Positions 1 to 60,467 of a DNA stretch of 64,000 nucleotides are shown here, one piece after another. The stretch lies in assembly GCA_964106915.2 (NCBI GenBank), contig OZ066916.1; one strand, 5' to 3'. Made by a program: the position numbers and the translations under genes. The notes below the pieces were generated by a model. That model had not been told where the DNA came from. It searched no databases and saw only the letters and a program-made list of their open reading frames with translations. The DNA comes from Podarcis gaigeae (Eukaryota). The stretch's first letter is position 1, and each line of letters starts with the position of its first letter.

Positions 1-1834
1 ATGACCATAAAAGCCTGTAAAGGTAAGAATAAGGATCTTATGCTGAATGTGGAAGTAGGTAGAAAGCCGGTGAAGGGATTTAAGAAAGGTTTTCATATGA
101 TCAGAATTACAAGATATGTAAATGAGTTTGGTACCAGAATGCTGGGTGGAAATGGAGGACCAGATGAGGCAATGAAGGAGTAGAGAGGTCACCCTCTGGG
201 TTCAAGTACACTTCCACTTGTCCCACTGCTTTCTTCCAGGGAAACCCACTGTTTACCTCTGAATTGGCGCAGGGGAAAGGAAAACTGTGAATGAACTATC
301 AGTCAGCCTAACGTGTCTCATAAGTGTTATTAGAATAAAGTGGGATATAGGTGGTGGTGGTCAGTAGAGAATTTATATAAGCTGTGTTGAGCTTGAAAGA
401 GTGGGGGGGATAAACTTTTGTTATGATATTTTGTCCTTTCTGTTAACGTGTTGCATCATTCCTATTCTCCTCCTCTGCCAAATGTGGGATTCTAGTTGGA
501 GTATTTGATCAGTAGGCCATCTTTTGAATGTTCGCATCAGTTTCCATTACTATGAATTGAAAAAGGAATATGAGTTACAGATTAGTTTATAAACTCATTG
601 TGCTTCTTACTGAGCCACTTCCAATTGCTAAAAAACATTTATGTTGCAGGCTGCATTTATCCAGATTGTCTGAGCCCACAAAATGCTGCTGGAAGCAGAC
701 TGTCAAATAAAGCATGATTTGAGATTCTAGACCACCCCTTCTCTTGCAGTCTCTGTTGCTGCAGCAGAAAGTGGTGGCAGGCTGTTTCTCTTAACCTCTT
801 GGTCTAGTGTTCTAGCCGTAATCCTGCAATAGGAAACAGGCTGAAAGATTTGTATGGATCACCTTAGGTGTGTTTGGTAAGACAATCCCTCTACTTCCCT
901 GAGCCAGTGTTTACCTGATCTTATGACAGGAAGGTGGCATTATGTGGCATCCTCTCAAGCTGTCTGTACACCTGTCATAATGCATGTTGCCAGCTGTTCC
1001 ATCATTGCATCTTGTGCCAAGTGCACATAATGCACCTGAGAATGCACACAAACGTCTGCATGTTGCCATCTGTTCTCACCATTGGACTTTGAACACAATT
1101 CTGAGAATCAATGTAGTGTACCAATACTATTCGAAAGGTGTCTGACTTGTGAGCCGAGTAAAATATTGTTATTGAGTAGCTCAGTTCAGCTGAAACCACA
1201 TACGTGTCCCAGAACTATGTGTATGAATTGGCTTTATTCTGAGAAATGTGTGTTGTCATTGTGCTAGATAGGGAAAGCCCCTAAGGTTCATGCTAGCCCT
1301 GATCCTATGAATGTCCGCTGGCAAACACATCCTATACCCTTATTAAATCAAGTGCTCTTTTTGCATTTCCTGAAGAAAGCCAAGCTTGCCCATTATCAAG
1401 AATGGCAAGGTCATTCTTAATAAAATAAGATTTTGCTCTTTGGCATGATATTTAGTTGATATGATTATTTTATTGTAAATAAATAGTAGAATGGCAACCC
1501 TGATGCAGTTATTGCTAGTTCATAGGACCAAGCACACAGTAATAATCATTTTCGCTGATCACTGCTAAATTGCTCTGTTTGGCAAGGTGCATATGACCAT
1601 TGCAACTCCCAAGTAGTATTATCAATTCCCCAAATTAGCACTTTCAGAATATATGCAGATCTGGTAATAAGAAGTTCAGATAGCGTATCCTTTATCTTCC
1701 TAGCTCCTTTAGTTCAGTGTCTTTGCCCATAGATTTAAGTTACAGATAGGTAGCCGTGTTGGTCTGCCATAGTCAAAACAAAAAAAAATAAATCCTTCCA
1801 GTAGCACCTTAAAGATCAACTAAGTCAGTTCTTG

Positions 1835-1872
1835 GTATGAGCTTTCGTGTGCATGCACACTTCTTCAGATAC
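1835..1872 (-). ncRNA. Hammerhead ribozyme motif, mirror copy in left pLTR
   Basis: Exact reverse complement of 2431-2468. Confidence 0.78.
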
Positions 1873-2425
1873 ACTGAAACAGAAGTTTCCAGACCCTTCT
1901 ATATAGTGAGAAGGTGGGGAGGGGTATTACTCAGAAGGCTGGTGGGAATGGGTGATTGGCAGATAGCTGTGATGAGCCTGTTGACGACTCTTAACGACTG
2001 CAATAGGTCTTACAGGAAGAAAGAAAAGGTGAAAAATGGCTTTGTCATGTATAATGGGATAAGAATGGTTTTAAGTTTGGTGATAAGTTGTAATTCAGCA
2101 GCTTCTCTTTCCAGTCTATTTCTGAAATTCCTTTGTAGTAAAACAGCTACTTTGAGATCTTGTATAGAATGTTCTGGGAGATTGAAGTGTTCTCCTACTG
2201 GTTTCTCTGTATTGTGATTCCTGATGTCCGATTTATGTCCGTTTATTCTTTGGCGTAAGGTCTGGCCTTTTCATCCCTTGCTTCTTCCTGTAAGACCTAT
2301 TGCAGTCGTTAAGAGTCGTCAACAGGCTCATCACAGCTATCTGCCAATCACCCATTCCCACCAGCCTTCTGAGTAATACCCCTCCCCACCTTCTCACTAT
2401 ATAGAAGGGTCTGGAAACTTCTGTT

Positions 2426-2478
2426 TCAGTGTATCTGAAGAAGTGTGCATGCACACGAAAGCTCATACCAAGAACTGA
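2426..2478 (+). ncRNA. Minimal type I hammerhead ribozyme motif in PLE pLTR, sense to EYA4
   Basis: GUAU-CUGAAGA-A-GUGUG(CAUG)CACAC-GAAA-GC-UC^AUAC; stem I extended by UCAGU/ACUGA. Confidence 0.78.
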
Positions 2479-5400
2479 CTTAGTTGGTCTTTAAGGTGCT
2501 ACTGGAAGGATTTTTTTTTGTTTTGACATAGATTTAAGATTTAGGCCCAGTTCAGACATAACAATTGTTTCCTGTTCCATGTCTACTAGCAGATCTCCTT
2601 TTAAATACACCACAGTTCCTGGTAATCACGAAAGCCAGTTTAACTGTCATTTGTTCAAACTATGATGAATGAGAAAAATACAGAATCAAACAATGTTTTC
2701 AAATCCTGGCTTGATCTTAAGCCATAGTTTAAACAAGCCTCAAAACCTTCAGTTCAGATATGGGGAACTGTGGTTTGTTTAAAACAGTTGTAGAGGACCT
2801 TTCTCCCAGCATGCCAGATCTATATCTGCCCTATCCTTTACAAGCTAAATTTGACAGGTGAGTGAGGGCACTCACCTGTCAATCACCTGACATCACAATG
2901 GTATCAAGTGACAAGGCTCTTTGAGGGGTCACTCCTAGTGTCCCTTCAAAAAAAGCTTGCTCCACATTCACAAAGGGGTTTGCATTAAAACCCCTGTTAA
3001 AACAGGATTTTTGCTCCATTTTAGCAGTCATTTCAATGCAAACCATGATTTTGGAGCAAGGTATGTTCCAGCCACCTATCAATTATTGGAGTGGGGAGTG
3101 TACCTTTATTCAGCAATAATTTGGAGCTTATTTTAAGCTCCTAATTGTTCCTTTAGGACCACGATGGTATTCGCTCTACCCCAACATCACATATGACATT
3201 AGGTATGGGGCAGGTGGGTGTGGTTTTCCAGGAATGGCCTGGTAGGTCAAAGTGGGGCAGTGGGCTAGACATTCTCCACTTCTGGTTTAAAAGCAAAAGC
3301 AAAAGCTGCTGATCTTCTTGCATATGCAAATGAAGGGAGTAGGATGGAGAAACCTGACTCTTCAGTGGCTTCTGTTTACAGATCTGGTAAATTAAATTGC
3401 CCTTTTAATCAACAGAATGTATAAAATACCAGTTTCAACTCTTTTAAATAGTAGAGGGTTCCTAACTTGTGTGTATCCTAGAATAACTATTTCTAAACAT
3501 ACATCTTGATGTCCACTTTTACTGCTGTAAGTAGAAAGATTTAGGGGATATTAAAGGGGAGCCATGTTTTGCAGAGGCTGCAGTTTGTCATAGTAAAGGA
3601 GAGTAAAATAGTCTGATGCAAATACTCACTACACTCTGTTGCCAAGACATACAAGAGGAAAAAGCCTCTGCTAAAGGCACCAGAGCCTATGCTACTCCAG
3701 CTTATGCAGGGTTAAATTTGTGCTTTTATAAAAATCACCTTTGAATGGAATCTCTGCAAGTCAGATTGATCTGTAGAGGAAGAAATGGAAGATACTTCCC
3801 ATGTGATGGGGTCACAGAGGAGGGCTACATTCCCCTGTGCTAACTTTCTGGGAGCCACATGCCAGCAGTAGGTGAGCCCCAAACCAAAGTGGATGACCTG
3901 AGCTGACAAAGTGCTCTTGCTCTCCCACTCCCTGTAACAGATTCACACACAGGCACTTACTTATACAGCCTCCCTCTGCTGTTGCTCAGATGACTTAGAA
4001 ACAGCTGAGCAGTAGAAAAGAAAGATGCTGCAGAAAGGGCAGGCATACACTCACTACATCTCATACACAGACATATGGAATTGGCTCCCTTGTCTCTCAC
4101 CCTTCCAGTCCTTGATCAAGTGATCTACTTATGAACTCCTTGGACCTTTCCAGCCAGGAATTACTAAGATTCTTATTCTGGAAGGTCTGGGACCCTGACA
4201 GCCTTCCCACTAGTTCTGCATTCATTTTCCCCTTGGAAAGTCAAAGGTAAGGGAAGCCTTCAAAAACTGCTGCCTCAGCGCACTCTGACAGAACCACCAC
4301 CTCACACTCAGAGCTGGCTGGAGTGGGAGGAGAGCCATGGTCTGCTGGAAAAAGACTATGAATAGCAGACTGGCTGGAAAGGTTCAATGACTTCATCATG
4401 TACAATGAGTTTGGTCATAATAGATGGTAGCAAGTTTAAAAACTTGAACATTCAGTCTCCTCCATGTGGATGTGAAAGAGGAGAAGACGGAACAGGGAGC
4501 ATTGAAGCCCAAGGTTTTCCACACATTCTAATAGTAGGATCCTGTGGTTTATTGTTAAGTGGAACCCAGCCAATAGATATTGGATATGAGCCTGGAACTA
4601 GGTGAAGTTCCCGTTTTTTTGTATTGGACCACTCTTGGCAGATCACTATGCCTCGTCCTCTGTTATCCCTCCTGTAACATTGCCACATATTGCAAAAATG
4701 AAGGAATTATGTTGGGTTTTTTAAATTTTAAGTAATTAAGATTATAAAGTATTTTATACCAAATGTTCTGTATAAAACACAGCTATAATTTATTTAGGAG
4801 TTTAAAGGACATACTGATAACAATTGATCCAGTTTCGATTAAAACGCTGTAAGCATCTAATAGGAGGTCATACTGCATATGAGATTCAGAAGACACAAAC
4901 GCTATGCAAAATGTGGAAAATCAAATTTAATAAATATTTTATGTTTGCTCATTCCATGATAAACATTGAGTTATTGCGCAGATTGAAAAGACAAAGTACA
5001 TACTAGATTATAGATACATATGGATAATACTTGCAAAATATTTGAACTGGAGCAACACACATTAAGTATACCGGATTTAGAAGATGAAAATTAATGTATG
5101 AATTATTTAGCTAACACTGCACTTTTGCCACAGAATCTGGTGTTTATTATTGTGAGCTTTAGCAGGAAACAGAAGCCGTATCAGTTGGGAAAACATTTCT
5201 TTACAAAATTGAGAACAGTTTGGCTTTCTCGTTTTTAAGCAGGGAACCTGGTTCTTTGGTTTCTTTGTTCCAAGTCAGACTACTCCCAAACTATTTTAGC
5301 TGAACGTTTTACATACTAGCGGAGTCAGGGGAAGTTAAGTTGGCAGCTGTTCGTGGGATAATAATGAAGCACACTGTTTAGTATTGCATATCCGCACTGT

Positions 5401-5544: not shown

Positions 5545-60467
<54,923 letters not shown>

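Follow-up and report, generated by a model that had tools for sequence, protein, structure and literature searches.

The closest described systems are the minimal type I hammerhead ribozymes (min-HHRs) found in Penelope-like elements (PLEs); these ribozymes are defined in the main text of Cervera and de la Pena (2014; PMC4209133) by an extra nucleotide, a G10.1-C11.1 pair and a palindromic 15.2-16.2 segment. The same text describes metazoan min-HHRs as lacking detectable activity when single and as weakly active when dimeric, and also notes opposite-strand motif pairs 100-700 bp apart and occurrences of the motif in turtle and snakes. For the anole, the cited passages of PMC11167929 report a PLE hammerhead that cleaves only with the element protein, identify uncut RNA as the main template and report the cut site to be free of RNA-seq read ends; the corresponding passages of PMC6765202 agree. 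Inserted PLEs have a published layout consisting of an inverted 5′ copy, a one-sided tail (30-40 bp in PMC8557442) and a target-site duplication (TSD), as outlined in parts of PMC8557442 and PMC3846280, and the role of hammerheads in endonuclease-bearing PLEs is stated as unclear in the relevant passage of PMC8557442. Intronic hammerheads conserved in amniote genes (RECK, CTCL, DTNB) are portrayed in the cited part of PMC6155905. According to a 2026 preprint (10.64898/2026.07.22.740005), Xenopus introns are depleted of retrozymes, and one of nine dimers was active.

The window analysed here comprises 64,000 nucleotides of Podarcis gaigeae DNA, in which an intact-looking hammerhead had been predicted at 2426-2478 on the pre-mRNA strand of EYA4. 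Every part listed in this original prediction was found in place on the plus strand. Nucleotides 2431-2468 constitute a min-HHR with a stem I of 4 bp (GUAU 2431-2434/AUAC 2465-2468) and a stem II of 5 bp (GUGUG 2443-2447/CACAC 2452-2456 around CAUG). In standard hammerhead numbering, the core residues C3 to A9 (CUGAAGA, 2435-2441) are followed by the extra nucleotide A2442 between positions 9 and 10.1 and by the G10.1-C11.1 pair (G2443-C2456). GAAA at 2457-2460 provides G12 to A14 (2457-2459), and the palindromic AGCU at 2460-2463 (A15.1, G, C and U16.1) precedes C17 at 2464, after which the cut is predicted. The motif thereby displays the core pattern CUGANGA...GAAA...UH with helices I and II of PLE min-HHRs as well as the extra nucleotide, the G10.1-C11.1 pair and the palindrome 15.2-16.2 of the feature list in the main text of PMC4209133, and it is located in the pLTR of an element with RT and GIY-YIG. 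In the window copy, stem I is extended by pairing of UCAGU (2426-2430) with ACUGA (2474-2478) around a CAAGA bulge (2469-2473).

The isolated 53-mer is computed to adopt the predicted stems at -10.6 kcal/mol, a stability that is unexceptional compared to shuffled sequences (z -0.67; 46/200 shuffles fold as well). However, a descriptor of the min-HHR core and both stems matched the window three times (2435 on the plus strand, 1868 and 13959 on the minus strand), in each case within one family, against a mean of 0.015 matches across 200 first-order Markov simulations, and the motif is therefore not a chance occurrence. The covariance-model check that had been proposed along with the prediction, and whose failure was to form the first half of a disproof, matched no Rfam hammerhead family at the gathering score in the window or at E<=10 in 1600-2700 and 2415-2490. 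We ascribe this silence to models which presumably do not cover forms devoid of helix III and, since helix III is absent from the motif, give it little weight. Weak Rfam matches to snoRNA, miRNA and lncRNA models (E 0.47-7.4) were dismissed as chance.

The hammerhead is embedded in a 787-bp, 5′-truncated Penelope-like insertion with a 12-bp TSD, a one-sided tail and a GIY-YIG remnant. The left (1728-1739) and right (2527-2538) TSD copies are 100% direct repeats, and the duplication is confirmed by empty sites in relatives, which carry one copy. Between them lie a 32-nt tail representing the 3′ end of the element (1740-1771, minus strand), the main pLTR arm (1772-2035, minus strand, antisense to the host gene), the C-terminal remnant of a GIY-YIG endonuclease (2013-2267, minus strand), which is 5′-truncated and carries an internal deletion near its end, and the inverted 5′ pLTR arm (2268-2527, plus strand, sense to the host gene). 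The inverted arm lacks the tail and is 96.2% identical to the main arm over 264 columns; the 232 nt in the middle encode the end of the endonuclease on the minus strand. A second min-HHR in the main arm (1825-1877, minus strand) matches 2426-2478 at 53/53 nucleotides. The arms, the TSD and the antisense remnant bear out the claimed Penelope-like origin with an antisense main copy, and the arm alignment confirms that a 5′ inversion flipped one intact min-HHR to the host sense strand. Non-LTR retrozymes are built of non-coding tandem repeats that each bear a hammerhead, and the insertion does not fit this description, its arms being inverted rather than tandem and an ORF remnant being present.

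Pfam revealed nothing significant for the 86-aa endonuclease remnant by itself, which is 88-96% identical to at least 149 other places in the genome (150 scored of 2,543 candidates). A longer copy, L066, contains a 762-aa frame with an RVT_1 domain (E 2.7e-12), a CX4CxxC linker and a GIY-YIG domain (E 4.2e-5). Its linker conforms to the CX2-5CxxC motif between RT and C-terminal GIY-YIG that characterizes Neptune and is shared with Nematis, and as the sole basis of the assignment it points to the Neptune clade in the definition given in the cited part of PMC8557442. The inverted pLTR, the one-sided tail and the TSD are the hallmarks of endonuclease-bearing (EN+) Penelope-like insertions. A third, short family copy resides at 13875-13964 (minus strand) in a later intron; it is antisense only and has one stem II mismatch.

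A motif scan with EYA peptides located EYA exons on the plus strand from 5546 to past 57400; the next host exon downstream of the insertion is the second coding exon at 5546-5595, and a later exon matches EYA2/EYA3 structures (E 6.5e-17). Upstream of the window start, at a distance of ~26.7 kb, lies the ATG exon with its GT donor. As the ATG exon lies upstream and the next coding exon downstream, the insertion sits in the intron that follows the ATG exon, and the nearest known exon is ~3 kb distant. Farther upstream, 43-45 kb from the window start, a CpG island probably holds the EYA promoter. The claimed position in EYA4 intron 2 thus stands with regard to an EYA gene and the intron following its ATG exon, while paralogue and intron number are putative: we take the gene to be EYA4 rather than another EYA paralogue on the basis of the N-terminus of EYA4, and the number 2 presumes a single non-coding first exon. 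Blastn over 264 kb around the gene detected three further family insertions; all four main copies are antisense, a number too small to mean anything, and no other intact sense copy was found in the span that runs from the CpG island to 20 kb beyond the window. One of these insertions, an inverted stump ~45.2 kb upstream of the window start (L035:4753-4979), adjoins the CpG island on its upstream side; its sense-arm core is broken and lacks C3-U4. Another inverted stump, 77 kb further upstream and outside the gene (L043:7701-7928, ~122 kb upstream of the window start), has intact cores on both strands ~12 nt apart. A literature search for hammerheads in EYA4 returned one unrelated-looking review, and orientation bias was mentioned in none of the papers listed by a separate search.

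For an estimate of age, five of 23 listed sequencing runs were compared. In three related organisms from one study (runs X4, X5 and X6) the insertion site is empty in 3/3 cases. Each run provides one contig whose left flank extends to 1739, 1738 and 1739, respectively, and whose right flank starts from 2527, so that the flanks overlap by 12, 11 and 12 nt, corresponding to one TSD copy; the left- and right-flank records were matched by run, length (5,902; 2,330; 5,212) and depth. The left flanks differ from the window at 3/610, 7/1,010 and 6/1,040 places and are thus ~99% identical. In run X1, the organism best matching the window, a contig enters the element by 26 nt, a weak signal below the 31-nt bar. 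Conservation at the orthologous site, as expected for a domesticated hammerhead of the RECK/CTCL/DTNB type, is not seen in these three relatives, and from these flanks the insertion is judged to be recent and lineage-specific. Some further irregularities were recorded around the site. In run X2, which bears the same organism label as the best match, the left-flank contig diverges after 1661 where it ends, leaving 1662-1698 without contig cover, which may reflect a local variant or a filter effect. Run X5 contains 28 extra letters at window position 730, composed of a 19-nt flank duplication and ~9 nt resembling the end of the element tail, which may be a separate, ultra-short insertion by this family, 1 kb away from the window copy. 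In the right flank, depth is raised in 4/4 runs over two short patches of low-copy repeat (2860-2930 and 3185-3230).

The 1.51-Gb genome contains 11,151 exact copies of the 34-nt ribozyme, 5,575 on the plus and 5,576 on the minus strand, whereas the reversed sequence used as control gave 0 matches; for a 22-mer taken from downstream of the cut site, the count is 16,158. The insertion in the window is young, absent in three relatives and one of 11,151 exact copies, so that host gene and orientation are both nothing special; a ribozyme on the sense strand of an intron requires no special event, and thousands are expected. Arms were sampled from the first 100 listed places of the 22-mer (C1, 85 kb-5.24 Mb) and from one further place, giving 101 arms in 73 insertions from one chromosome end, which is not a random sample. 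In this sample, 44/73 insertions have the head-to-head layout and are inverted the same way as the window copy, 42/101 arms retain the core and both stems intact, and most 3′ ends lie at the tail end or fail to reach it by some 30-40 nt. A search for stem I variants gave 404 matches; among the 100 that were listed, 98 appeared to be single mutants or tandem slips within this family. A second search pattern with 23 matches yielded an older, decayed PLE family (L184, L186, L187, L188, L191, L194, L196, L200 and L201) whose core reads CUGAUGA, whose stem II is of the 7-bp type and whose stem I contains a C-G pair.

From these 23 matches, with copies near-identical to the window left out, 12 were chosen by the core pattern (nine of the older family and three variants) and aligned with the window motif, the core and two stem II pairs being fixed by the pattern. 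In the resulting 13 sequences, 86.5% of the stem I cells and 86.2% of the stem II cells are paired, stem I showing a swap from U-A (4) to C-G (8), whereas only 33.8% are paired in the UCAGU/ACUGA extension. Changes on both sides of a pair number 18 versus 9.9 in shuffles (2/500), based on few events that lie between two families. Within the young family, 54 arms were compared and 47 left out as shorter or gapped; position 2477 is G in 27/54 and A in 27/54 of them, with no compensating change at 2427. The low pairing and the uncompensated variation led us to reject the stem I extension as a conserved element; the pairing described for it in the original prediction is real in the window copy but not a feature of the family. 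As judged from the alignments, the hammerhead fold is kept at the element level and the extension is not. The commonest core change affects G12 (window 2457), which is A in 6/54 arms and at ~12% of the family depth; this decay is likely attributable to methylation, the position being in a CpG.

On the host strand, the antisense arm (1772-2035) is followed by the 232-nt loop and the sense arm. Since the inversion that produced the sense ribozyme also placed a near-perfect antisense copy upstream of it, masking is predicted. In ViennaRNA calculations, which omit proteins, kinetics and hammerhead tertiary contacts and under-rate hammerhead folds, the ensemble of 1740-2530 in which stems I and II are enforced and the core is kept open is 69 kcal/mol less favourable than the free ensemble, in which the core bases of the ribozyme pair with 1838-1868. 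The arm duplex amounts to -493 kcal/mol and corresponds to a predicted hairpin of ~260 bp. When the transcript end is set at 2425, prior to the ribozyme, 153/158 nt of the right arm are computed to be already paired to the left arm. With the left arm removed, the open-core fold has a probability of 0.02-1.1% in 7 contexts, and an AGCU helix III dimer in trans contributes -3.9 kcal/mol. A domesticated hammerhead would be expected to fold alone in the pre-mRNA; the penalty of 69 kcal/mol and the zero-loop helix III argue, as computed values, against such behaviour here.

Very probably, as far as the folding models hold, the locus is a recent, dead, 5′-truncated and 5′-inverted Penelope-like insertion whose sense min-HHR would be masked by the antisense arm and is probably inert. 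The polymerase, proceeding from left to right, would make the antisense arm before the sense arm, which would zip onto it before the ribozyme emerges and thereby form the 260-bp hairpin. Even if unmasked, a min-HHR with a zero-loop helix III would need a second copy or the element protein, to judge from other elements, and here it would find no sense partner and no sequence past the tail. The effect on the host would likely be none, or that of any long intronic hairpin. The in vitro activity data behind the masking view come from other elements; moreover, A-to-I editing or helicases could open the duplex, and transcription that begins within the right arm would bypass the antisense arm.

The original prediction had gone further and proposed that the intron could cleave itself co-transcriptionally, a step that is not supported: the upstream antisense arm is predicted to mask the ribozyme, and no sense dimer partner was found in the gene. 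Cleavage of the EYA4 intron by the flipped ribozyme during transcription, assisted by a trans dimer or a protein and affecting splicing or output, appears extremely improbable. The intact core and stems, the location on the host sense strand within the intron that follows the ATG exon, the covariation of stems I and II between two families of this genome and the precedent of conserved amniote intronic hammerheads described in part of PMC6155905 would suit it, but they are opposed by the 69 kcal/mol masking by the first-made arm, the weakness of the helix III dimer, the missing insertion in three relatives and a published activity which is low (main text of PMC4209133) or protein-dependent (cited passages of PMC11167929). 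If the window copy did cleave EYA4 RNA, a developmental gene would harbour a ribozyme that is lineage-specific and very recent.

The insertion might instead act as a long dsRNA hairpin, by way of ADAR editing, small RNAs or slower splicing, or through a splice-acceptor-like TTTCAG at 2424-2429 (plus strand), and not by catalysis. Nearby inverted repeats in introns undergo editing, and the predicted 260-bp duplex and the acceptor-like sequence would be suited to such roles. This modelled effect is nevertheless unlikely, as the nearest known exon is ~3 kb away, thousands of such hairpins are tolerated in the genome and the acceptor is itself within the predicted duplex.

The 5′ ends of the family were surveyed in the 101 arms, which were selected only by sequence downstream of the cut site. 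In 91/101 the arm extends past the cut site; the start lies at 2416-2434 in 36 arms, at 2435-2462 in 28 and at 2463-2468 in 2, with 8 arms starting downstream of these intervals and 27 upstream. The two cut-site starts are no excess (p 0.39). Sister copies (L071-L149) pile up with their 5′ ends at window positions 2429-2431, along the 5′ margin of the ribozyme rather than where it would cut, and in four DNA runs the best-supported left loose ends, among the 24 of 1,088 rows listed, lie at 2429-2432. Nine arms begin at stem II, whose palindromic sequence leaves fold-back junctions ambiguous. In the older family, too, several copies start directly at this 5′ margin. For the pile-up, an origin by spliced leader was discarded, as the sequences upstream of the junctions have no common leader. 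By eye, a TATA-like motif is discernible at 2397-2404 and an Inr-like TCAGT at 2426-2430, 31 nt below it, both on the plus strand. Junctions starting at 2431 carry a G replacing the reference T in 12/20 distinct cases (p 0.003 versus an assumed 0.29), a weak hint of a copied cap. From the sequences, the pile-up likely marks the start of the element's own transcript. In the simplest reading, short copies span the element from the tail to this transcript start and were templated by uncut RNA; alternatively, cut RNA may simply not be copied, which would likewise make cut-site starts scarce. The cited passages of PMC3846280 argue for antisense templates.

A promoter in the right arm could start a sense transcript at ~2428-2431, in which the ribozyme would be 5′-terminal and free of the antisense arm and which could splice to the next exon. 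The spacing of the TATA-like and Inr-like motifs and the clustered 5′ ends of the sister copies would agree with it, as does a putative TATA plus Inr in a rotifer pLTR according to part of PMC3846280. We nonetheless consider such a transcript, deduced from sequence features, highly improbable, because the Drosophila Penelope promoter is internal and TATA-less in the account given in the cited part of PMC2377424 and the RNA would still adopt the hammerhead fold at just 0.2-1.1%, with no partner.

Finally, the 11,000-copy family might constitute a genome-wide set of latent intronic ribozymes, sense copies cutting host RNAs when the element protein is present in the germ line or early embryo. Solo copies without an antisense twin would be the foremost candidates, and the window copy might participate via a transcript of its own arm. 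Since integrated copies start at the 5′ edge of the ribozyme and almost never at the cut site, the ribozyme would occupy the 35-37 nt with which the capped RNA of the element begins and might serve as a decapping switch. This scenario is very unlikely at present. If the family does cut pre-mRNA in vivo, intact solo sense copies in introns should be depleted relative to broken or masked ones, and its thousands of young copies, intact and broken, solo and inverted, make it useful for a direct in vivo test of cleavage. The window copy, probably masked and inert, is as it stands a typical Penelope intron footprint and matters little.

Among known systems, the insertion most closely corresponds to the EN+ PLE units (Neptune-like) depicted in the cited parts of PMC8557442 and PMC3846280, with which it shares 5′ truncation, an adjoining inverted 5′ copy, tail, TSD and the order of RT then GIY-YIG with the CX4CxxC linker seen in L066; no structural difference from these descriptions was noticed, the clade being assigned from the linker motif. 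PAc of Anolis carolinensis, in the cited passages of PMC11167929, likewise is a reptile PLE with a hammerhead by the ORF start and the tail and with copies made from uncut RNA, but it belongs to the Poseidon clade, and protein dependence is demonstrated for PAc and only inferred for the window copy. Compared with the schistosome families, whose helix II has 7-8 bp, that of the window min-HHR has 5 bp; this comparison relies on the main-text description of PMC4209133, whose supplements may already list the reptile family. The intronic hammerheads of RECK, CTCL and DTNB, as presented in part of PMC6155905, share the type I form on the intron sense strand; their conservation spans amniote lineages, and they are depicted with tertiary contacts. 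In contrast, the hammerhead described here is of minimal form, lineage-specific and present in many copies; it has an antisense twin and is not matched by Rfam.
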